DNA of 64,000 nt from Gammaproteobacteria bacterium (GTDB lineage: Bacteria; Pseudomonadota; Gammaproteobacteria; Ga0077554; Ga007554), in NCBI GenBank assembly GCA_023266055.1, contig JAHFRW010000005.1:13106-77105 (forward strand), written 5' to 3'. The stretch's first letter is position 1; each line of letters begins with the position of its first letter. The position numbers and the translations under genes were made by a program. Below, piece after piece: positions 1,313-44,607 of the stretch. The notes below the pieces were generated by a model. It was given only the letters and a program-made list of their open reading frames with translations, was not told the DNA's origin and did not search any database.

Positions 1313-1334
1313 ACCCAATACTGTTCGGATAAAC
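1313..1334 (+). repeat. left terminal inverted repeat of the katG unit (ACCCAATACTGTTCGGATAAAC)
   Basis: Exact reverse-complement match to 5807-5828. Confidence 0.85.
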
Positions 1335-1395
1335 TGAGGTAGCCTGAATAAAACGGACACTCCCGATGGGTAGAATGGCCCATCAGGAGAGCAAC

Positions 1396-1707
1396 ATGAG
1401 TAAACGAGATAAGACATACACGCCGGAATTTCGGTCGGAGGCAGTAAAGAGGGTATTAGAACAGGGACTCCGGCCAGAAGAGGCCGCCCATCGGCTGGGG
1501 ATTCCCAAGGGGACGTTGGCGGGTTGGATGGCCGCCGCGAAGTCGTCGAAAACACCCGCCGCCCCCGGCGCCCGCTCAGCGGGTGAACTTGAAGTGGAGA
1601 ATGCCCGGTTACGTAAAGAGTTGGTCGAGGCCCGGATGGAGCGCGACATCCTAAAAAAAGTGACGGCGTATTTTGCAAGGGAGTCATTGCCAGGTACGCG
1701 TTCATGA
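1396..1707 (+). CDS. IS3-family transposase OrfA (HTH DNA-binding part)
   Basis: MSKRDKTYTPEFRSEAVKRVLEQG...leucine-zipper-like C-terminus. RBS caggagag precedes the ATG at 1396. The ORF-track start at 1366 is probably too early. Confidence 0.85.
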   Translation: MSKRDKTYTPEFRSEAVKRVLEQGLRPEEAAHRLGIPKGTLAGWMAAAKSSKTPAAPGARSAGELEVENARLRKELVEARMERDILKKVTAYFARESLPGTRS

Positions 1708-2564
1708 AAGAGTGGCGACTCCAATTTCCCATCGAGACGATGAGCCGGGTATTTGAGGTATCGCGGAGCGGCTACTCCGACTGGCTCAAGCGCAAACCCT
1801 CGGCACGCGCCCAGGCGAACGAACAGTTGAAGATCGCGATTCGCGTTGCCCATAAGCGCTGCCGTGAAGTCTACGGGGCACTCCGCCTGCCACCCGAACG
1901 GGTGGCAGATGGGTTTATCGCGGGGCGGGATCGCATCATCAGGTTACGCAAGGAGAGGGGGATACGTTGTAAACAGAAACGTAAATTCATAGCGCCGACG
2001 AACTCGAATCACGCCTTGCCGGTTGCGCCGAACCTGCTGGAACAGAAGTTCAACGCCACGTGCCCGAATCAGGCGTGGGTGGCCGACATTACCTACATTC
2101 CCACCGAAGAGAGCTGGCTCTATCTGGCGGGGATAAAGGACCTGTTCAGTTGTCAGATCGTGGGCTATGCGATGGGGGCAAGGATGACGCAAGAGCTGAC
2201 AGGGCAGGCGCTCTTTCGTGCAGTGAAGAACAAACGACCGGAGGCAGGGTTGATCCACCACTCTGATCGAGGCAGTCAGTATTGCGCCCACGACTACCGC
2301 CGGATGGTAGAACAGTTTGGGATGCAGGCTTCCATGTCACGGCGCGGCAATTGCTATGACAATGCGCCAATGGAGAGCTTCTGGGGTAGCCTGAAAAATG
2401 AACTGGTGCATCATCGCCGTTACGCCACGCGCGCCGAGGCGGAGGCTTCGATCCGGGAGTACATCGAGATTTTCTATAACCGCCAACGACGCCACTCGCG
2501 CCTTGGCTATGTAGCACCGGCTGTGTTTGTGGATAGTTTCAACAAACAACAGGCCAGTGCTTGA
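1704..2564 (+). CDS. IS3-family transposase OrfB (DDE integrase core), made as an OrfAB fusion by -1 frameshifting
   Basis: 286-aa ORF with D..D..E integrase-core signatures (ADITYIPT...HSDRGSQY...DNAPMESFWGSLK). It sits in the -1 frame relative to orfA and overlaps the A7G motif. Confidence 0.85.
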   Translation: MKEWRLQFPIETMSRVFEVSRSGYSDWLKRKPSARAQANEQLKIAIRVAHKRCREVYGALRLPPERVADGFIAGRDRIIRLRKERGIRCKQKRKFIAPTNSNHALPVAPNLLEQKFNATCPNQAWVADITYIPTEESWLYLAGIKDLFSCQIVGYAMGARMTQELTGQALFRAVKNKRPEAGLIHHSDRGSQYCAHDYRRMVEQFGMQASMSRRGNCYDNAPMESFWGSLKNELVHHRRYATRAEAEASIREYIEIFYNRQRRHSRLGYVAPAVFVDSFNKQQASA

Positions 2565-2612
2565 GGTGGGTGTGTCCATTATTGACAGTACACCTCATTA
2601 TATGCCCAGCGT

Positions 2613-3074
2613 ATGCGTATCGAGGTGCAGTTTCGAGACACCAAGAATCTGGCGCTCGGCATGGGTTTATCGCAATCAAGGAGTCAGGGGCAGCAACGGT
2701 TACAGGCGCTGCTGCTGATTGCGCACATCGCAGAATTGGCAAAGCGCTTAATCGGCGAGGCGTCGCAGGCGCGACAACTGGAACTGCGACTGATGAGCAA
2801 CAACATAACAAAACGCAAAACAATCATCGGTGATGACGCTCGCCGCGCGCGTCATCGAGAGGGCAGACTTGTTACGCGAAATTACCGATGCGTGGTCATA
2901 CTTGCAAACCTTGCGAAGACAGGCGACATCGGCGGTTACTCAAGCGACGGGTGGGGCGTAATTCGTGGGGAAACCTCAGGGGCAGACCCCATTGAACTCT
3001 ATAAATTCGATCAAGGTGCGGGGGCAAGGCGAAAAGGGGCGGAAAAGCCACGCTCCGTCCGTAAAAAAATATAG
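2613..3074 (+). pseudogene. C-terminal remnant of a DDE transposase (IS4/IS701-like tail) truncated by the IS3 insertion
   Basis: ...RIEVQFRDTKNLALGMGLSQSRSQGQQRLQALLLIAHIAELAKRL resembles the conserved C-terminal R-x-IE-x-F-x-x-x-K block of IS4-type transposases. It begins 16 bp after the IS3 right end and has no upstream partner. Family assignment is from memory only. Confidence 0.4.
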
Positions 3075-3219
3075 ACAAAGTCTAAATTACCTGTTTAAAT
3101 TAGACTTATTCTAATTCGCGTGACGGATTGGAGACAAATTCACTTATAGAACATTGACCTGATTAACTTGCGGCATCGCTAACAGTTGTACACTTACCAT
3201 ATAACGAGGAGAATTATAC

Positions 3220-5436
3220 ATGTTAAAACAATACAGACCGTTGTTCTCTGCCATGTCAATTTCTGTATCTATGGCAATATCAGCAGGCTTTGCCGTCGCA
3301 GGGCCTATAGCTAATTCGAATCAATTCTGGTGGCCGGAAAAGCTGAACATTGAGCAACTGCGCGCTCATGATTCGACATCGAATCCCTATGGGGATAAGT
3401 TCGATTATGCCAAGGCATTTGCGAGTGTTGACATGAAAGCGCTGAAGGCCGATATTGAAAAAGCCTTGACCACATCTCAGGACTGGTGGCCTGCAGATTG
3501 GGGTCACTATGGTGGCCTGATGATCAGATCGGCGTGGCACAGCGCAGGTACCTACCGTATTCATGATGGTCGTGGTGGCTCGGACGGCGGTCAAATTCGC
3601 TATGAATCACAAAATAGCTGGCCGGATAATGCTAACTTGGACAAGGCACGTCGATTGCTGTGGCCGGTAAAGCAAAAATATGGCCGTAGTGTGTCCTGGG
3701 GAGACCTGATTATCCTGGCCGGTAATGTTTCGCTGGAGTCCATGGGCTTTAAAACGCTGGGCTTTGCCGGTGGCCGTGCAGACGACTGGGCGGCTGACAA
3801 GGTATATTGGGGTTCAGAAACAAAATGGCTTTCCAATGCTGAGCGCTATAAAGGCGGTAAACTGGAAAAACCATTGGCCGCTGTGCAAATGGGCTTGATC
3901 TACGTGAACCCGGAAGGTCCAAACGCAAATCACGACCCGCTTGCTGCTGCCGCAGATATGCGTGACTCGTTTGGCCGCATGGCGATGAACGACGAGGAAA
4001 TTGTGGCGCTTGTCGCGGGTGGACATACCTTGGGTAAAGCCCATGGTGCCAAGTCGGGTGAATGTGTCGGTCCAGAACCGGCTGCCGCCGGTATCGAGGA
4101 GCAAGGTTTCGGCTGGAAGAACAAATGTGGCAAAGGAAATGCTGAAGACACCATGACCAGTGGTCTGGAGGGTGCGTGGACTTCCACGCCGACGGCCTGG
4201 TCGATACTCTTCCTGGATAACCTGATGAGATTCGAGTGGAAGCAGACCAAGAGCCCTGCCGGTGCTCATCAGTGGATTCCGACGGATGAAGCGGCGGCAA
4301 ACCTGGTGCCGGATGCTCACATCAAGGGTAAGCGACATGCGCCGATCATGTTTACAACGGACATAGCGCTGAAAAATGATCCGGGGTTCCGTAAAGTCTC
4401 CGAGCATTTCCTGAAGAATCCAAAAGCATTTGATCAGGCCTTTGCGAGTGCCTGGTTCAAGCTGACGCATCGTGACTTGGGTCCCCGTGCACGCTATGTG
4501 GGTGCAGAAATCCCAAGCGAGGTGTTTACATGGCAAGATCCGATTCCAGCGGTTAATCATAAGCTGATTAACAGTGGGGACGTTGCCAAGCTGAAGTCGA
4601 AAATTCTCGACTCCGGCCTGAGTGTGCCTGAACTGGTTAGAACTGCGTGGGCATCGGCCGCGACTTTCCGTGGCTCTGATATGCGCGGCGGCGCCAATGG
4701 CTCACGTATTCAGCTGGCTCCTCAGAAAGACTGGGCAGTTAATAATCCGGCTGAACTGTCAAAAGTGCTGGCTAAGCTGAAGAGTATTCAGTCATCATTC
4801 AATCAGTCACTGAGTGGCGGGAAAAAAGTGTCGCTGGGAGACGTGGTCGTGCTTGGTGGTGCAGCGGCGATCGAAAAATCTGCTAAAGCGGCGGGTTACA
4901 AGGTTGAGGTTCCTTTCAAGCCAGGCCGTATGGATGCCTCTCAGGAACAAACGGATGTCAATTCGTTTGCTGTGCTGGAACCAACTGCTGACGCTTTCCG
5001 TAACTACTACACGGAGAGCTATGGGTCGCCGACAGAGATGCTGGTGGAAAAAGCTGACCTGTTAACGTTGACAGTACCGGAGATGACGGTACTTGTGGGC
5101 GGTATGCGCTCTCTGGATGCAAATAGTGGTGGTTCAAAACATGGTGTATTCACAGATCGCCCAGGTACCTTGAGTAACGACTTTTTCGTCAATCTGCTGA
5201 ATATGTCCACCAAGTGGTCCCCGACATCTTCTGAAGGAATTTACGAAGGTCGTGATCGTTTAACGGGTCAAGTTAAATGGACGGCGACACCGGTTGATTT
5301 GATCTTCGGCTCAAACTCGGAGTTACGTGCTGTTGCCGAAGTTTATGCCGCCAACGACGGACGTGAAAAGTTTGTAAACGATTTCGTTGCTGCATGGGCC
5401 AAGGTGATGATGCTGGATCGATTTGATCTGAACTAA
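3220..5436 (+). CDS. katG: catalase-peroxidase KatG with an N-terminal signal peptide (periplasmic, KatP-like)
   Basis: 738 aa. It has the haem-peroxidase motifs [11 protein letters not shown] and [10 protein letters not shown] and a duplicated two-domain architecture. The N-terminus [28 protein letters not shown] looks like a Sec signal. A strong RBS aggaga precedes the ATG. Confidence 0.93.
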
Positions 5437-5581
5437 TCTTCAATCAAAGGGGCTCTATGTGAAATACAGTGGGTAATCGAATTTCATCTTTCCACAGAGG
5501 AAGTAAATCATATTGATAACTGATGTTACGCGCCCCGCAGTGAGAAATTTGCTATCCTGCGGAGATGAAAAAAGCAGACCT

Positions 5582-5685
5582 TGAGGGCACCTCTAATAAT
5601 TAGAGGTGCCCGTGCGGTACAGGACGTGCCGCCATTTATCAATCTCTGCAAGAGATTGATAAATGAAGAAAAGAAAAAATCACAC
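5582..5685 (+). repeat. copy A of a ~104-bp structured intergenic repeat (two hairpins); its partner copy is at 44336-44439 in inverted orientation
   Basis: Hand alignment of the reverse complement of 5582-5685 against 44336-44439 gives about 90% identity. It contains GGGCACCTCTAATAATTAGAGGTGCCC and a 15-bp stem CATTTATCAATCTCT-gca-AGAGATTGATAAATG. Confidence 0.75.
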
Positions 5686-5702
5686 ATCAAAGGGGTCAGT
5701 CT

Positions 5703-5721
5703 CAATACTGTCCGGATAAAC
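5703..5721 (+). repeat. internal 19-bp copy of the unit's terminal repeat (CAATACTGTCCGGATAAAC, 1 mismatch), oriented like the left IR
   Basis: 18/19 match to CAATACTGTTCGGATAAAC within 1313-1334. Together with 5807-5828 it delimits a 126-bp MITE-like mini-element. Confidence 0.7.
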
Positions 5722-5806
5722 CATCCAAGCCAAAAATCCGTTCGGGCTGAGCTTGTCGAAGCCTGGCGTCACAGCGACTTCCCTTTGATAGGCTCAGGGC
5801 GAACAG

Positions 5807-5828
5807 GTTTATCCGAACAGTATTGGGT
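5807..5828 (-). repeat. right terminal inverted repeat of the katG unit
   Basis: GTTTATCCGAACAGTATTGGGT is the exact reverse complement of 1313-1334. Confidence 0.85.
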
Positions 5829-6128
5829 ATTGACCACCGTTTGCGAATTGCGCCAATGCACGGTGCCGGGATAGCCGATGGATAATTCATTACCGTCGCC
5901 CCAGCCGCGCTGGGGATCATGGCAGGTGGCACAGCTGGTGGTGGCATCACCCGAAAGGCGCGGATCGAAGAACAGCATTTTGCCAAGCTCAATTTTGGCG
6001 GGTGATTGCGGATTGCTTTCCAGTATGGGCACCGGCGGCAGGGCCGCCAGGGGATCAGATGCAACCGCGACGACCGGGAACGGGAGTAACAAGAGAGCGG
6101 CGCAGCGCGAGCGTAGAGCAATACGCAT
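5829..6128 (-). pseudogene. di-haem cytochrome c peroxidase, N-terminal fragment (signal peptide plus first haem CATCH), truncated by the insertion
   Basis: MRIALRSRCAALLLLPFPVVAVA...GKMLFFDPRLSGDATTSCATCHDPQRGWGDG...HWRNSQTVVNT, then read-through into the IR (QYCSDKP...*). RBS ttaaggagaac precedes the ATG at 6128. The ORF-track start at 6227 is too early. Confidence 0.75.
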
Positions 6129-6370
6129 GATGTTCTCCTTAAATATATTTAAAGATAGGGAAGATTTTGGCCCGCAGTTTTTCATACGGTTATCATGAAG
6201 ACAGTCGGTGCGTGTTTTTGATTGCAAAAGAAGCGAATGAATCGGGATGAGGGTAAGCGTTGTGCCGATCCGGTACGCACAATAAAGCGGCTATGAACCC
6301 CCGAAAAGGTAGCTCATGGCCGCAGTATTACGTCAGTAACTGATTGATGAAGGGTTCGGGAGAGCTGAAT

Positions 6371-29504: not shown

Positions 29505-30425
29505 GTGCTTGTAAGTCGAAGATGGTTGTTATGGCTGTTGCCGGTATTTTTGACGGCCTGTGGTACGGTAACGCCACCCCGTGATGGTGTGGCGCCGGAC
29601 GTGACGCGTGACGGCGCGCCATCCCAGGCGCAAAAGATAGATATTGCGTCCATTCCGGATGCGGTGCCACGGGCCGAGCCACGTAGTAAGTACGGTAATC
29701 CGGAAACCTATGTAGTGGCCAATAAGACCTACCGCACCCTGTCCGCGAGTGAAGGCTATCTTGAGAGCGGTATCGCCTCATGGTACGGCACCAAGTTTCA
29801 TGGTCGTCGCACCTCCAGTGGTGAACCGTATGACATGCATGGCATGACTGCTGCCCATAAAATCTTGCCGTTGCCGACCTACGCTGAAATAACCAATCTC
29901 CAGAATGGGCGCAAAGTAACGGTCAAGATTAATGATCGTGGCCCATTTCATGAGAACCGCCTGATAGATTTATCGTATGCGGCTGCCAGTAAACTGGGTA
30001 TTCTGGCTACCGGTACCGGCCTGGTCGAGGTGCGCGCTATAACGCCGGGCACCGCCATGACGGATGCGCCTGCGTTGGGTGCCGCAGTAGTAGCTGCTGA
30101 GCGCGTTAGCCTGCCCTTGGGGCAAAGATCGCGTGTGGCGAAACTCTATCTGCAGGTGGGGGCTTTTAGCAACCGCGACAATGCTGAACGGTTACGCATC
30201 CGCCTGGCGGCGGTTCCTGTGCATCCCTGCACTCACCGCACTGGGGCGTCCTGCCCGGCGGATGAAGCCGCCTCCAGCAATGCACGGATTATTGAAAGAC
30301 CAGCGGCAGGTGATTCACTCTACCGTGTGCGCCTTGGCCCGTTTGCCAGTGTTGAGGAAATGGATCGCTTTGCCAGTAAACTGAGCGGGCTGGGGATTCG
30401 GGATACTCAAGCCATCATTGACTGA
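29505..30425 (+). CDS. rlpA: septal ring lytic transglycosylase RlpA (DPBB domain plus C-terminal SPOR domain)
   Basis: Lipobox LTAC. DPBB core GIASWYGTKFHGRRTSSGEPYDMHGMTAAHKILPLPTYAEITNL. SPOR domain at the C-terminus (LYLQVGAFSNRDNAERLRIRL...YRVRLGPF). Confidence 0.85.
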   Translation: MLVSRRWLLWLLPVFLTACGTVTPPRDGVAPDVTRDGAPSQAQKIDIASIPDAVPRAEPRSKYGNPETYVVANKTYRTLSASEGYLESGIASWYGTKFHGRRTSSGEPYDMHGMTAAHKILPLPTYAEITNLQNGRKVTVKINDRGPFHENRLIDLSYAAASKLGILATGTGLVEVRAITPGTAMTDAPALGAAVVAAERVSLPLGQRSRVAKLYLQVGAFSNRDNAERLRIRLAAVPVHPCTHRTGASCPADEAASSNARIIERPAAGDSLYRVRLGPFASVEEMDRFASKLSGLGIRDTQAIID

Positions 30426-30525: not shown

Positions 30526-30693
30526 TTCTTTTCCCCCCGCCTTGTAAATATAATATATTGTTTATTATAAAGATATTTTTATGGCATGGAATCTGCAATT
30601 TGCTGGATGAGTGCGGTCCATACCATCGGTTGCCCGTTATTTTTTGCAAAAAATCACATCCGCCGGGCAGGACGCCCAAGTGCGGTGAGTGCA

Positions 30694-30735
30694 GGGATGC
30701 GCAGGCGACTGCAGGGATGCAGGAGGTAGAGCACG
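30694..30735 (+). promoter_or_regulatory. pair of 11-bp direct repeats TGCAGGGATGC spaced 20 bp apart, upstream of the porin gene; possible response-regulator binding site
   Basis: tgcagggatgcgcaggcgactgcagggatgcaggaggtag seen directly; function inferred. Confidence 0.3.
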
Positions 30736-38441: not shown

Positions 38442-38491
38442 GATGCAAGGTGGACATCCTTCCGTGTTATTTCCGCTCAACGACAGTGTGT

Positions 38492-40522
38492 CTAATCTTT
38501 TGGCTTATCCTCCGCAATATTCTTCGGCGCTATGAAAAAATCCAGCGGCGCGGCCGCAAAGCGTGTGAGCAGTGCCTTGATCAATTTTGGCCATTGCGTG
38601 ACACGCACCTGACGCGAGCGTAGTGCGACGAAGAGCGCCAGGGAGAAGCTTACCAGCAGATTTACCGCACCAATGCTCAAGACCCCTACAAACGAAATAA
38701 CCGTAGTTTGCCATGTTATATAATGTTCCAGGCCAACTAATGCAGTGGCGAAATTGGCGGAAGAAAAGGCAATATGGCGAATGTCGATAGGCAAACCGAG
38801 CAGGAAGCCCAGGGTGCCCATGCTGCCAAGAAACACGCCAAAATAAAAGTTACCCATGAGTCCGCCCAGATTATTTTCAATATAACCTGCAAATTTTACC
38901 TGGCGGGTTTCACCCAGCAGGCGACGCAGCCAATGTAGCTGCGCGATACGGAGGGGAATGTGTGCGTAGGCTGCCTTGTTGTCGTAGTAACCTGAAATCA
39001 ACCCCGCCACAAACAGGCACACCCCTGCAATAGCGGCATGAAATAGCGCAAGGCTGTGCAGGGGATCAATGTCGTGCAACATGTGTTCGGCTTTTCCCGG
39101 TGTTACTAGGTGCTGGCCTTGTATGGAAAAATATCCCCAGGCAATCATATAGGCGATGGGGAAGGCGATAATGATGTTGCCCAGCACGGCGACGAACTGG
39201 GTGCGTATTACTTTCGCGATCAGTTCCACTAGGCTATCGGTATCGATATGGCGGCCGTCGCGGCTGTGCAGTCCGGCGGCAATGCGGGAGGCAGTCATGG
39301 CCGGTTGCTTGGTCGCGATCGTGAAATGCAGCACGTGAATCAGCATAAAACCCAGTGAGTAATTCATGCTGTAAATAAAGGCTTCTACCAGGGGTGCTGC
39401 ACGCAGGTAGGATGCGAGCGTCTTGAGGGTGGCCATAAAACCAATGATAAAGCCCGCACCGGCAGCCGCGCGAAACATGGCGGTATATTCGCTGCGATTT
39501 TCCGCGACATAGTGTTCGCCCGTGCGACTGGCATTTTCCGTGACGTTGCGTGCCAGCAGGTTGATGTTGCTGGCGAACAGGTCTCGCATTACATACTTGC
39601 GATTATGTGCCTCAACCAGTTCCAGGCCCAGCGCCAGGGCGGCATCGTTGCGTGAAATGTGTTCGCCATTGACGACCACGCTTTTTGCTGTGATGGGGGC
39701 GGGTAAATCATGGGTGACATCCACCAGCACCAGCAGTTTGCGTAACCGGTCAATGCTTTGGGTCAGCCGTACCAGCAAATAGGTGAGCGCGACGCTGGTG
39801 CCCTGCCGCAGGACCACCGTCTCGCACTGCTCCAGCATGACCAGTAAATGTCTGGTATCTTCCGGTGGCTTGGGGTCGCCGCTCAGGAAGCGGTTGTAAT
39901 CATTGAGATAGCGTAGTGTTTCAACATTCTGCATCAAAAACGGTGATTCAAATGTTTTGAGATCCAGTTTGTTGCGAATTAATTCGGGTTCCAGCCCCAT
40001 CGCGCTAATGCGGTAAGACAAGGCCTGGATGGCGCCCAGCAACTGCATGATGGTTTTTTTTCGGTTTACAGCGTCTCCCTGCCCGGTGCCTGCAGTCGCC
40101 AATGTGTTATACAGCGCCAGCCAGTCATCCGCAGGCACGCCGCTCATCCACAGGTAATCAGTATTGACAGGCAGTATTCGATCCAGGCAGTCACGCAGGT
40201 AACGATCATCTACCGCCGGGGGTAACATGCGATAGGAAAGGCGCTGAAACAGCTCAGTAAAGAAGCCGTTGCTGGAGAGAATGCCGGTATCGGTATAGAG
40301 GCTGCTCTGGTGTCGTGTCGAAAATACGCGCAGTAGATAATGGCGGAGGGCAATGGCGTGGCTTTCCTTGCCCTGCAGTAGCTGTGTGAGGGTGCGGACA
40401 TTGGCGATAGCTTGATCAATTTGATGTGGCTTGTCCGGACGTAATTTCCGGACGAGTTCCGTCAGACCGTCAATGGCGTCGGTGTCAGGGTTGTCGGCGA
40501 TGCGTTCAAGTAGGGCCAGCAT
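38492..40522 (-). CDS. large polytopic membrane protein of the family historically annotated 'site-specific recombinase' (Gcr/PF10136-like)
   Basis: 676 aa with a long helical N-terminal region and a multi-TM C-terminus. Family assignment is from memory only. Confidence 0.45.
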   Translation of the reverse strand: MLALLERIADNPDTDAIDGLTELVRKLRPDKPHQIDQAIANVRTLTQLLQGKESHAIALRHYLLRVFSTRHQSSLYTDTGILSSNGFFTELFQRLSYRMLPPAVDDRYLRDCLDRILPVNTDYLWMSGVPADDWLALYNTLATAGTGQGDAVNRKKTIMQLLGAIQALSYRISAMGLEPELIRNKLDLKTFESPFLMQNVETLRYLNDYNRFLSGDPKPPEDTRHLLVMLEQCETVVLRQGTSVALTYLLVRLTQSIDRLRKLLVLVDVTHDLPAPITAKSVVVNGEHISRNDAALALGLELVEAHNRKYVMRDLFASNINLLARNVTENASRTGEHYVAENRSEYTAMFRAAAGAGFIIGFMATLKTLASYLRAAPLVEAFIYSMNYSLGFMLIHVLHFTIATKQPAMTASRIAAGLHSRDGRHIDTDSLVELIAKVIRTQFVAVLGNIIIAFPIAYMIAWGYFSIQGQHLVTPGKAEHMLHDIDPLHSLALFHAAIAGVCLFVAGLISGYYDNKAAYAHIPLRIAQLHWLRRLLGETRQVKFAGYIENNLGGLMGNFYFGVFLGSMGTLGFLLGLPIDIRHIAFSSANFATALVGLEHYITWQTTVISFVGVLSIGAVNLLVSFSLALFVALRSRQVRVTQWPKLIKALLTRFAAAPLDFFIAPKNIAEDKPKD

Positions 40523-40975
40523 TCAAAAAGTACAGTGCCAGTTCAGGCCAAGAGGGAGAGTTTACGAGGTGTGGGAGTGATAGGCAAGTGATGGACTCCG
40601 ATACTGATGAGCATCGCTGCGGGCATTTGGCTTGAGTATTTAAGGTGATGTTGGACGGATATGGCGGGTGGTGGTTTGATATGTGAGCACTATGTATAGA
40701 TTAGGGTGCGTATTCGGCATATTTTGACAAAGCCTGACAATTTTTTATTGCTTACTTTTTTCAAGGCCAGTATCTTTAGCGAGTGTCGGATGATGTGGTT
40801 GCATAGTGGGCTTGTCGTTATCTTTGCGCGCATTTATCTGTGTTCTTGAATTATTGCAAGACAGTGGAATAATCCGGATGGGAACGTTGATCAGGGGGCG
40901 TCACTTGACAACACCGGCGATTAAGCCATTATTTGGCTCAACATGTAAATGTGATGGGTGGGGCGATGCATATGA

Positions 40976-41772
40976 AAATTAAAAGTCTTGGTGCGTGCGT
41001 ACTGGTGGTGATGTCGTGTTTTTCCTCTTGGGTGTATGCCGTACCGATTGCGCTTGACCCGATTTTGCCCGGTGTATTTAACAACGGTAATGGCGTTAAC
41101 AGCGATTGGGTGCAAGTGAATCGGAACTGGAAGGGGTTGAGTTATTATGATGCCAGCTCCCCCTATTTTAATACTAATGGTATAAATGAATTGCGTGATT
41201 ATAATGCGGCCATGACAATGGATCGCGGTCCGTTGGGCGTCACTCAGGGTCTATACAACACCTGGACTGGTACGGTTGCAAACATTAATTTTGCAGATCA
41301 GGTGTTTAATAATGTGTGGGGCAGTGTGTGGGGTGATCGTCCCCTGGCGCCTGTGTTCACGGACAATTATCAGGACAATTTCGCTGTTCGTTTTACCGGT
41401 TATCTTGCCATTCCTGTGGCGGGTGAATATAACCTGGGCGTGTTGTTCGACGATGGCTTCCGCTTCGAGCTTATGGGAGATGGTGGTGCATCCGTGGTTT
41501 TATCCAAGGATGGACTGAATCCTCCCTGGGATATCATGAGCTTTGCTGATCCGCTATTGTTGGGCGTTGGCTTGTATGCTTTCAGTCTGGACAGCTACGA
41601 GCATTGGGAAGCCGGGGTGATCAGTTTGCTATGGCAGACAGCCAGTGGTGCGGATTGGAGTGTTATCCCCGATGACAGGTTTTTTACCCAGATACCAGAG
41701 CCTGCTACCTGGGGTATACTGCTGATCGGTTTTGTGGCTATGGCGGCGGCGCAACGCAAAAAAAAGCGCTAG
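40976..41772 (+). CDS. PEP-CTERM exosortase-sorted secreted protein with a PA14-like domain
   Basis: Signal peptide MKIKSLGACVLVVMSCFSSWVYA. PA14-like FAVRFTGYLAIPVAGEYNLGVLFDDGFRFEL. C-terminal PEPATWGILLIGFVAMAAAQRKKKR (PEP motif, TM, basic tail). Confidence 0.8.
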
Positions 41773-41776
41773 TGAC

Positions 41777-42709
41777 TTACCAGACGCTGATCAGGGTCAA
41801 TGTTCCAAGGCAGTAGCGATAGTTTGCGCTGCCTTGCCCTGTGCTTAATCCGCCCGCGTTGGAGCAGCTTGCCTTGGCTTCCAGTCCCAGCAACTCCGAA
41901 AACCAGCCTTTGATTTTCACCTCACCGTAAAACAGGCCGTTGCTATCCGTGCTGTCGATATCCTGCATCCCGGCACCTACCAGTGCGCCTGCACTCCAGC
42001 GCTCCGCGAGTATCGAACGGGTATAGCCCACCAGCGCCATGTATTCCCTTAGTTTACGGGGGCTGAAATAGCCAATCCCGCGAAAATCGCTGTCCACCCA
42101 CTTGACGCGCCCCTGTACATTGAGACCTTCGATTTGCGGGAGACTGTAAATGATACGGGCGACCTTGCCGGTGCGGTTATTGCTATCGGAAATGGATTGC
42201 GTATAGAGTGCGCCTACCAAGGTTAGCTCCGGGGTCAGTGCGTAGTCCACGGAGGCGCTGTAGGTGTCGGCACGATAACGGGATCGGATCGCGGTCACTG
42301 TATCAATGATGTCACGCTGGACAGACGCCTCCAAGTACCAGGGCCTCGGTGTTTTGTAGCTTATATTTACTTCACCCAGCGTGGGTGACCAGTCGCCGGA
42401 GAGTTGTGTAATGTCAACGCGGGAGCGCCATTGCCGCGCAGGGCCGGTATCATACTGAAGTTTCAGTGCGTCGAATTGCTCTTTGCCAACAGCGTCATTG
42501 AGTCGCCATTGTCCCAGTCGAATACCCGCTATGCCACCCGCCAAGGGTTTATCAACCGATTGATCCACTCCCAGATAATAACGCCATTGCCGTGCATTAT
42601 CGCTGTCATCGGAATACAGGTTGTCCATGATCACGCGTGCAGCGTTTGCTTCGGTTGCTACCAGGCACAACAGAAGCAGGCCGATGCTTTTCCCTATTTG
42701 GTTCCCCAT
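41777..42709 (-). CDS. outer-membrane beta-barrel protein (YaiO-like), co-transcribed with the GT2 synthase
   Basis: Signal peptide, beta-strand-rich, terminal W. 16-bp overlap with the upstream GT2 gene. The E. coli yaiP-yaiO pair has the same GT2-plus-barrel architecture. Confidence 0.55.
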   Translation of the reverse strand: MGNQIGKSIGLLLLCLVATEANAARVIMDNLYSDDSDNARQWRYYLGVDQSVDKPLAGGIAGIRLGQWRLNDAVGKEQFDALKLQYDTGPARQWRSRVDITQLSGDWSPTLGEVNISYKTPRPWYLEASVQRDIIDTVTAIRSRYRADTYSASVDYALTPELTLVGALYTQSISDSNNRTGKVARIIYSLPQIEGLNVQGRVKWVDSDFRGIGYFSPRKLREYMALVGYTRSILAERWSAGALVGAGMQDIDSTDSNGLFYGEVKIKGWFSELLGLEAKASCSNAGGLSTGQGSANYRYCLGTLTLISVW

Positions 42710-44064
42710 TTCTTCCTCATATTGAAGAGCTCGGCGGAATAACCCACCAGGCTGGCGGGTGACATCAGCAGCTGATAGATCAATGTGTACCAGAGAAAAC
42801 CGGCAAGATTGCGCCGTACCTTAAGGCCGTATTGGCGGAAGATCGAGCGCTGGTGTGTGAACATGATGGTGTTAACCAGCAATATCAGCGGGATCAGGAT
42901 CAGGGTTAACAGGCCAACCACGAGATAGTATTGAAAAAACACCGCCGCAATGAGACCCGGCACAAGCACTAGCAGGAATGCCAGGTCCAGATAAGGGAAC
43001 AGCAGATTGAGGTAGATAAAAGGCGTGTTGAATCTTGGTTTGATCAACACGCCAGGGTGATGTTTAAAGGCTTCGATGAGGCCGCGAGACCACCGTTTGC
43101 GCTGGCGGTAAAACTGTTTGTAGGATTCGGGAACATTGGTGAAAACGAAAGCGTTTTCCGCGTAACCGATACGGTAACCTTTGGTTAGCATGCCCCAGGT
43201 CAGCACGATATCTTCGCCTAATGTGGGCGGCCAGCCGCCCAGTTCCTCAAGAATATTCCGGCGATAAATGGAAAAAGCGCCTTGTGCCACCAGCGTGCCC
43301 TGGAATAACGACTGGATTCTTTTGGTGACGGCGATGCCGTGGAAATAGTCCCATTCCTGCAGGCGTGTGAGGAAATTCTTGCGGGAGTTGCGTACCAGCA
43401 CGGTGCCTGCTACTGCGGCAGTGCTGGACGGGCCATCGACCAGATGACGTACGATAGCCGCAAGACTACCCTGTCGCATCCAGGTATCGGCGTCCACAGT
43501 AACGATCAGGTCATGTTTTGCTTGCTTGAGCCCCGTATTAAGTGCGTTGGCCTTACCGTTATTTTTCGGTACGCGAACCAGTTGCAGGGTAAAGTGGGGG
43601 TGTGGGTGTGTTTGCCCCATGATATCTTTCACGATGGCTGCCGTGCGGTCGGTGGAGCCATCATCAATGACAATGATTTCTACTGGAGAGTGATACTCCT
43701 GTCGTAACAGGGTATCGAGTGTTCCCGCCAGCGAGGACTCTTCATTGTAGGCCGCAACCAGAATGGAAACGGGTGGGAGCGGGTGTTTATGCTGATAAAC
43801 CGGGCGCTTATCAAGGAGCAGGCCGGCCACCAGAAAGGCGTTGGCAAACCCGGGAATGAGTGCTACCCCGATGACTGCCAGCCACGCTGGAATCGGTGTG
43901 ACCACGCTCGATAAATCATCTATCCAGGGCAAGGCAAGATACAGGCTCAGTCCGCACCACGCAAATGCGGCCAGGGTGGCCAGAACGAGCTTGTAACTGA
44001 CAGGAAGATACGCCCTGCGTTTGTCAGCAGGAGGGGTAGAATGGGTACTTTCCTTGTCCATCAT
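42694..44064 (-). CDS. processive family-2 glycosyltransferase (PgaC/NodC/YaiP-like polysaccharide synthase), membrane-embedded
   Basis: N-terminal TMs, VEIIVIDDGSTDRT, TVDADT (DxD), QRKRWSRG (QxxRW), and a multi-TM C-terminus. Confidence 0.8.
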   Translation of the reverse strand: MMDKESTHSTPPADKRRAYLPVSYKLVLATLAAFAWCGLSLYLALPWIDDLSSVVTPIPAWLAVIGVALIPGFANAFLVAGLLLDKRPVYQHKHPLPPVSILVAAYNEESSLAGTLDTLLRQEYHSPVEIIVIDDGSTDRTAAIVKDIMGQTHPHPHFTLQLVRVPKNNGKANALNTGLKQAKHDLIVTVDADTWMRQGSLAAIVRHLVDGPSSTAAVAGTVLVRNSRKNFLTRLQEWDYFHGIAVTKRIQSLFQGTLVAQGAFSIYRRNILEELGGWPPTLGEDIVLTWGMLTKGYRIGYAENAFVFTNVPESYKQFYRQRKRWSRGLIEAFKHHPGVLIKPRFNTPFIYLNLLFPYLDLAFLLVLVPGLIAAVFFQYYLVVGLLTLILIPLILLVNTIMFTHQRSIFRQYGLKVRRNLAGFLWYTLIYQLLMSPASLVGYSAELFNMRKKWGTK

Positions 44065-44290
44065 TCGCTTGTGTTCCTCAGTCGCTCACGTGCTGCGTGC
44101 TGCAACGCCCTTCATCGCATCTTCTCAAGTTTCTACGGAGTTTGTCAACTTATGGGCGGCGGCATCCGAAAAGCAACTGTGTCGCCGTGCAATTATTACT
44201 TTTCTGGTTGGAGTTTATGCGATATTTTAAGTCGGGTCGGCCGTGTTCGGCGCCTGCTTTTTCAATGCTTGTCTTTTGTCTCATGGGAAT

Positions 44291-44322
44291 CTCTAAAAAT
44301 TCCATCCCTGGAATTTTTAGAG
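44291..44322 (+). repeat. perfect palindrome CTCTAAAAATTCCA-tccct-GGAATTTTTAGAG
   Basis: 14-bp arms, seen directly. Shares the CTCTAAWAATT core with the hairpins in the 104-bp repeat and at 31908-31980. Confidence 0.7.
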
Positions 44323-44335
44323 AAGAAAAGCAAAA

Positions 44336-44439
44336 ATGTCATTTTTTCTTTTCTTCATTTATCAATCACTTGAGTGATTGATAAATGGCGGCACATCCCT
44401 GCGCCGCACGGGCACCCCTAATTATTAGAGGTGCCCTCA
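44336..44439 (-). repeat. copy B of the ~104-bp structured repeat (inverted relative to copy A at 5582-5685)
   Basis: Contains CATTTATCAATCACT-tg-AGTGATTGATAAATG (15-bp stem) and GGGCACCCCTAATTATTAGAGGTGCCC. About 90% identical to copy A, with compensatory stem changes. Confidence 0.75.
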
Positions 44440-44607
44440 TGCTATATTCGCTTTGCCGATCAGTTCATGGCGTGAATGGCGCACGTTTCAATGACGTGGG
44501 CGGGGCTTGTGGTAATGTGTCATCATCACCCAAGGTGTTTGTCATATGGTGGCCTGTGTTAGACTCGCCGTATTCAATCAGGCCTTTTTGATTCATGTCC
44601 TTATAAT

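Follow-up and report, generated by a model that had tools for sequence, protein, structure and literature searches.

Described families of bacterial MITEs include Correia/NEMIS of Neisseria, ERIC, RUP, SPRITE and QMITE (reviews PMC10969869, PMC2229807). The repeat described here is like them in being small, non-coding, multi-copy and IS-related, with inverted ends, short target-site duplications and stable predicted stem-loops, and its ~151-nt unit falls under the usual definition of a MITE as worded in PMC10969869. It is different from them in sequence, being unrelated to the families checked, and in architecture, since five separate hairpins lie next to each other in place of one long foldback of the two ends; the terminal-repeat motif is found again within hairpins 1 and 5, hairpin 3 containing a shorter part. 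ERIC is an imperfect palindrome of ~127 bp carrying the ERIC consensus and is found in Enterobacterales; set against this general description, the five-hairpin architecture and the host lineage argue for a different element. Another class of palindromic repeats, REP/BIME elements, is associated with RAYT enzymes and shows no target duplication. REP units measure 20-40 bp and bear a GTAG or CGTC tag, as described in PMC3733652. We propose, with a probability of roughly 0.88, that the repeat arose by deletion from an IS5-family IS, as a non-coding derivative of ~151 nt, and is thus a MITE.

A first-pass annotation of the window (the whole stretch of DNA analysed, 64 kb) had reported a repeat of ~104 bp, present twice in inverted orientation and ~90% identical between its copies. 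Both statements hold. A repeat finder returned copies A and B as an inverted pair, and each of three sub-patterns of the repeat occurs exactly twice in the window, where shuffled sequences lead one to expect 0.00-0.02 occurrences. Pairwise alignment gives 92/103 identical columns (~89-90% over ~101 nt), with 8 substitutions and 3 indels and with sharp edges at either end. The element itself starts with GGGCACC, at 5585 in copy A and at 44436 in copy B; the TGA that opened the annotated interval is flank, a coincidental likeness of the target sites TTGA and ATGA. The features of both copies are as follows, scores being those of the covariance model R1 described below.

5581..5584, + strand: presumed left target-site copy TTGA of copy A, its right partner being absent
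5585..5685, + strand: copy A, a 5' fragment of the MITE (hairpins 1-3 and the 5' arm of hairpin 4), R1 73.4 bits
5585..5611, + strand: hairpin 1 of copy A
5614..5632, + strand: hairpin 2 of copy A
5633..5665, + strand: hairpin 3 of copy A, CTCT..AGAG variant
44285..44436, - strand: copy B, a complete MITE of 152 nt, R1 positions 1-152, 153.6 bits, E 1e-37
44437..44440, - strand: target-site duplication ATGA, left flank of copy B, same 4-bp rule as in the family
44421..44436, - strand: left terminal inverted repeat of copy B, GGGCACCTCTAATAAT, also the 5' arm of hairpin 1
44410..44436, - strand: hairpin 1 of copy B
44388..44407, - strand: hairpin 2 of copy B, GC-rich, with a GGGA loop
44356..44387, - strand: hairpin 3 of copy B, CACT..AGTG variant
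44324..44354, - strand: hairpin 4 of copy B, an A/G-rich tail paired with a T/C-rich arm
44290..44323, - strand: hairpin 5 of copy B
44285..44300, - strand: right terminal inverted repeat of copy B, reverse complement GGGAATCTCTAAAAAT, also the 3' arm of hairpin 5
44281..44284, - strand: target-site duplication ATGA, right flank of copy B

The block common to both copies comprises three hairpins and half of a fourth, so that the two hairpins per copy of the first-pass annotation are too few. Copy B runs 51 nt past this block, to 44285, and folds into five consecutive hairpins over 147 of its 152 nt (MFE -80.4 kcal/mol). Copy A is cut after model position ~101, in the loop of hairpin 4; its R1 match is without model positions ~86-146, and hairpins 4-5 are missing. 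The folds of the two window copies are far more stable than those of shuffled sequence (z = -9.6 and -8.1). In hairpin 3 the exchange of CTCT..AGAG (copy A) for CACT..AGTG (copy B), which had been noticed earlier as preserving the pairing, was seen again in the alignment and in folding and is a true double change, and three other, one-sided stem changes lead to G.U pairs in the orientation of copy A. The copies show no coding capacity, with stops in most frames and the open ones extending over only ~35-50 residues, and a concatenate of all stop-free six-frame pieces had no match at E<=10 among 5.8 billion proteins. The 64 kb hold two copies only, an R1 scan of the window giving no match besides A and B.

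The ends of copy B are observed directly. Its left end and the reverse complement of its right end match at 13/16 positions; in the family consensus the left end GGGCACCTCGAAAAAT and the reverse complement of the right end, GGGGACCTCGAAAAAT, match at 15/16, and the consensus of the terminal repeat is GGGSACCTYGAAAAAT. The junctions of copy B read ..TAGCATGA / GGGCACC on the left and ..GATTCCC / ATGAGACA on the right, and the site without the element would read ..GCATGA followed by GACAAAAG.., with a single ATGA. In copy A the duplication is unscorable, because the copy is truncated and its right end is missing. Among 54 unique full-length copies of the family, the 4-bp flank repeat is perfect in 24 and matches at three or more of the four positions in 35, the chance of a perfect repeat being 1/256 per copy; the duplicated target sites of the family copies are biased to TNNA. 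About a third of the family copies are without a clean duplication, which we tentatively attribute to boundary error, decay or chimeric assembly.

That the repeat belongs to a dispersed family, as the first-pass annotation had supposed, follows from a search with the pattern GGGCACC-N13-GGTGCCCGTGCGG, which fixes the outer stem of hairpin 1 and its junction to hairpin 2 and leaves the inner stem free. This pattern occurs at 86 loci in public metagenomes, where the hairpin series continues past the block common to A and B, to ..TTCGAGGTCCCC, an extension that copy B has too. A covariance model, as proposed with the annotation, was applied to these loci: model R1, built from 34 distinct copies, scores at least 50 bits in 77 of the 86 and gives 169 hits over 566 kb of fetched loci, with several copies on some contigs. 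Full-length members measure 150-153 nt (~151 nt), and shorter deletion variants are present as well (for example L025, L026 and L092). Identity between the window copies and any retrieved member does not exceed 77%, and for this reason exact-word scans with the window subtype failed: a 19-mer gave 7 chance matches only in 185,579 GTDB species genomes, a 22-mer had no related match in JGI metagenomes, and two exact words found nothing in IMG/VR. By blastn, the window-type sequence had no match among plasmids, nor did a consensus family member, and segment 5454-5702 had short chance matches only among phages. Rfam gave no hit at gathering threshold in the window, the only ones at E<=10 being far below threshold, and no match to the MITE in four other family members; a literature search with the end sequences of the family returned nothing except unrelated primers. 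The family seems to be undescribed and unannotated.

Several observations were made on the sequences that carry the family. A search by phmmer with a 59-aa read-through ORF found one match, a spurious ORF made of two MITE copies. Two stretches of P0248, a 280-aa public protein cluster representative, are reverse-strand translations of the MITE (..NGGASCPARAPRIFRGAL..), and P0248 is a spurious gene call caused by the family. One 11.4-kb metagenomic contig (L089, Ga0209681_1000092) is dense in copies, with about six R1 hits on their own strand, reverse-strand or overlapping ones aside; it also bears two degraded IS copies and tandem or nested arrangements. Another MITE-bearing contig (L099) matches a group II intron domain model below threshold at 4695-4771 on the - strand (34.5 bits, gathering 40). 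In Logan contigs of SRR14366785 (L009, L109, L001, L010), unitigs identical to the window stop inside the hairpin 5 palindrome (44293 / 44320), and others end either side of copy A (5484, 5799); de Bruijn assemblies are broken at the element and at its neighbours. The Logan contigs offered no alternative allele at the window copies.

The link to an IS is likewise visible in the sequences. In two loci (L022 and L090), an ORF lies behind the left end and hairpins 1-2, at 157 nt from the end; it starts with MTEKKIESIIRYPSDLIDEEWEILEP, scores 35.6 bits against PF13340 DUF4096 (cut-off 34.3) and has annotated IS5-family transposases as its nearest tblastn matches. At L089:1430-2583 (1,154 bp) the left repeat, five hairpins (108 bits), degraded transposase pieces and the right repeat follow in this order, and the pieces represent DUF4096, DDE_Tnp_1 and DDE_Tnp_1_2, with PF01609 and PF13586 above their cut-offs. 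Together with L065 these are the relatives that share the ends of the family, and the transposase ORFs seen in them are all partial or degraded. From the anatomy of L022/L090 and L089 we infer that the ~151-nt unit is an IS whose transposase gene was deleted. In agreement with IS5-family ISs, the relatives combine DUF4096 with DDE_Tnp_1 / DDE_Tnp_1_2 in ~1.15 kb and have ends starting with GG, and the MITE family has a 4-bp, TNNA-biased duplication; the IS5 and IS427 groups produce duplications of 2-4 bp. The difference is that the window copies encode nothing, and no cognate transposase was found in the 64-kb window. To our knowledge, a 150-nt module of five hairpins between left end and promoter is unfamiliar among described IS5 members.

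Both copies lie where the first-pass annotation had placed them, copy A 3' of katG inside a transposon-like unit and copy B in the spacer by rsmG. Their surroundings comprise the following.

502-1383 and 5769-6227, - strand: fragments of a di-haem cytochrome c peroxidase gene
1306-1315 and 5826-5835: duplicated GGTATTGACC flanking the 4.5-kb unit
1316-5825: 4.5-kb transposon-like unit, interrupting the di-haem cytochrome c peroxidase gene
1316-1334 and 5807-5825: 19-nt inverted ends of the 4.5-kb unit, CAATACTGTTCGGATAAAC
38442-44528: variable island, absent from relatives L011 and L012

Copy A begins 148 nt past the katG stop codon, on the same strand. The 4.5-kb unit carries an IS3, an IS4-family transposase fragment, katG, the truncated MITE and a 123-bp mini-element. 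This mini-element (5703-5825), which has a left-type and a right-type copy of the end repeat of the 4.5-kb unit, is a second, unrelated MITE-like structure and provides the right end of the unit. A linkage of the element to katG was considered and dropped: close katG homologues (91% nt identity) share positions 3200-5450 only, so that copy A is not part of the native katG flank. In two of these relatives (L018, L019), 91% identical over the katG block 3200-5450, a LysR-type regulator gene sits upstream of katG; its place is occupied in the window by the IS4-family fragment, and the capture of katG thus appears, judging from this arrangement, to have left its regulator behind. Segment 5454-5686 (233 nt), which consists of 131 nt of unknown DNA and the truncated MITE, is bracketed by ATCAAAGGGG as a direct repeat of 10 nt (5444-5453 and 5687-5696). 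The first copy of ATCAAAGGGG is native katG flank, and the segment looks like an insertion with a 10-bp duplication, yet is without inverted ends.

The spacer that holds copy B is 543 bp long and separates a family-2 glycosyltransferase (GT2) gene from rsmG; the copy sits ~90 nt inside the right edge of the ~6-kb variable island. The island contains a PF10136 'site-specific recombinase' (38492-40522, - strand), a PEP-CTERM/PA14 protein, a porin-like protein and the GT2 glycosyltransferase; in L012 a different gene pair is found at its position. No element was found at the relative loci, where the surrounding spacer is absent too, and an empty site came to light for neither window copy; the closest of the relatives, at 94% in RsmG, diverges before the insertion point. 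The window itself belongs to the MAG of an uncultured gammaproteobacterium. One of the relatives comes from the drinking-water biofilter project PRJNA301005 (BioProject of PMC4863621). Elsewhere in the window, a pair of 49-nt arms in inverted orientation (30216-30264 / 30657-30705), with 96% complementarity and 392 nt between them, possibly marks another foldback or MITE-like element. Some further ideas on the repeat failed. An inversion between the two inverted copies is contradicted by segment 32156-38440, which keeps its orientation relative to rsmG in L012; a Neisseria DNA uptake sequence, prompted by a Neisseria match, is not present in the window in any dialect; and the three palindromes have no common half-site and a spacing that differs between the copies, which speaks against res-site, dif-like, attC and operator readings.

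Five distinct hairpins fill nearly the whole element, and their covariation is unusually clear. In 34 copies, 93.5% of 1,912 stem cells pair canonically, compared with 87.9% in shuffles and 35-48% with slid partners; 22/57 pairs changed on both sides, and the 108 cells with such changes contrast with 31 in shuffles. None of 500 shuffles reaches any of the five covariation measures, and RNAalifold recovered hairpins 1-4 independently from the alignment. Hairpins 1 and 5 have arms that repeat the terminal-repeat motif, and four positions in them change together: columns 9/19/121/149 read CGCG in 18 members and TATA in 8, and columns 10/18/122/148 read TATA in the window copy alone. Instead of selection on pairing, these four-way changes may reflect binding sites that co-evolve with the transposase, or else conversion. 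Compensatory change runs through the whole family, and the selection on pairing inferred in the first-pass annotation is weakened for hairpins 1 and 5 by these changes in their arms. The strand on which pairing matters is hardly marked. Wobble cells in the 34 members number 76 G.U and 47 A.C, 20 of the G.U coming from one column, and the transposase-sense strand is the more stable one in 28/34 members, which are related sequences. With a strand bias this weak, roles at the level of RNA, roles at the level of single-strand DNA and palindrome correction are indistinguishable.

The hairpins might insulate the transposase gene from outside transcription, acting as a bidirectional terminator inherited from the IS; we put this forward tentatively as our preferred reading, with the odds somewhat against it. 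The idea stems from hairpins 2 and 4, which are terminator-like in opposite directions in most members: on the sense strand, CATTTTT comes after the GC-rich hairpin 2, which is terminator-like by the scan rule in 15/34 members, and on the opposite strand TTCATTTTT comes after hairpin 4, which is terminator-like in 26/34. SPRITE offers a parallel for such a possible role as terminator. In L090 the hairpins are separated from the transposase start by a promoter-like TTGATT-17-TATATT, and with this sequence downstream of the hairpins, the module itself would receive transcription chiefly as read-through from outside. In the window copies, whose hairpins are AT-rich, a terminator scan flagged none, and a scan for consensus promoters and terminators around them gave no convincing pair. 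There is no evidence that the copies regulate katG, the glycosyltransferase gene or rsmG. It is quite improbable, in our judgement, that the hairpin module is a functional structured RNA or ssDNA required by the transposase or a host factor, or, in a milder form, a selected bidirectional insulator of transcription spread through host genomes by MITEs. A required RNA or ssDNA would bear a loose likeness to the non-coding RNAs known from IS110 and IS200/IS605 elements, and such a function, if real, would explain the strong compensatory constraint on the whole module in a MITE.

Matched arms could also arise without selection. Templated mutation is established for quasipalindromes, and intrastrand template switching or mismatch correction could keep the arms of the five hairpins alike by copying one onto the other, in which case the element would still be a MITE, and its compensatory changes would carry no information on function. 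Pairing that is nearly equal on both strands (GU in 29 pair columns, AC in 26) agrees with such a process, as does the concerted change of hairpins 1 and 5 at four positions. We consider it on balance unlikely as the reason for the pairing, given that a G.T wobble in hairpin 4 stays 'uncorrected' in 20/34 members, that the loop motifs GGA/GGGA are conserved, with GGGA frequent in hairpins 2 and 5, and that the order and spacing of the hairpins are fixed among members only 57-80% identical. The same GGGA loops, the strong covariation and the very stable predicted folds would suit host-selected small regulatory RNA genes or cis-acting RNA structures whose dispersal is incidental, and so would the slight preference for the transposase-sense orientation (28/34; 76 GU, 47 AC) and the position of copy A 3' of katG on the same strand. 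The dispersal is, however, accounted for without any host function by the inverted ends, the 4-bp duplications and the IS relative. There is no Rfam match to the repeat, hits at E<=10 lying far below threshold, and no convincing promoter/terminator pair at the window copies; relatives are without the element at the same place, and copy A is a truncated fragment. We regard such RNAs as very unlikely, and the description of the repeat as small-RNA-like in the first-pass annotation, for which the weak strand bias of the wobbles offers little, was not upheld.

The description as REP/ERIC-like was apt in a loose sense, for an interspersed structured repeat, and fails on the inverted ends, the 4-bp duplications and the IS5-family relative. 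REP and BIME elements, which can stabilise or terminate transcripts, are extragenic palindromic repeats, and the copies are likewise intergenic, palindromic and multi-copy, as would be palindromes moved by a RAYT (HUH) enzyme or kept as sites for DNA gyrase, IHF or termination. The unit is nevertheless a fixed ~151-nt array of five different hairpins that begins with GGGCACC; it is without a GTAG/CGTC tag, and the enzyme linked to it belongs to the DDE transposases, with DUF4096, and not to the RAYTs. With its terminal inverted repeats, its 4-bp duplication and its IS5-family transposase relative, it is to be taken as a MITE rather than a REP/BIME, and we give the latter reading hardly any credence. 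That the two copies go back to a ~100-bp segmental duplication or gene conversion confined to this genome, with no family behind it, is as good as refuted. Such an event would fit the presence of only two copies in 64 kb and the chance matches of the exact 19-mer and 22-mer scans. The structure-tolerant scan, in contrast, revealed the same architecture at 86 loci elsewhere, copy B has ends and a duplication of its own, and the two copies differ by 8 substitutions and 3 indels.

For the MITE derived from an IS5-family element, we propose the following course of events, which is the usual one for MITEs. The DDE transposase of a full-length relative located elsewhere would bind the terminal repeats and mobilise the unit in trans, excising or copying it and inserting it so that 4 bp of target, biased to TNNA, are duplicated. 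Copy B would represent an intact insertion in the GT2-rsmG spacer, and copy A a dead 5' fragment carried within the mosaic 4.5-kb katG transposon-like unit. The five hairpins would be inherited from the parent IS, at whose left end they precede the transposase promoter, and be kept by compensatory change, with hairpins 1 and 5 doubling as putative repeated motifs for transposase binding.

In this reading the repeat is selfish DNA with no regulatory part in the expression of katG or rsmG, and its two copies mark mobile or rearranged DNA in the window, namely a katG-carrying transposon-like unit and a variable island. Beyond this locus, the family breaks short-read assemblies and yields spurious 'proteins' in public databases, P0248 being an example. 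With dozens of variants that show compensatory changes in its five hairpins, it provides a clean natural test set for why some IS ends keep hairpins; candidate reasons for such elaborate hairpins are insulation from outside transcription, arrays of binding sites and the mutation bias of palindromes.
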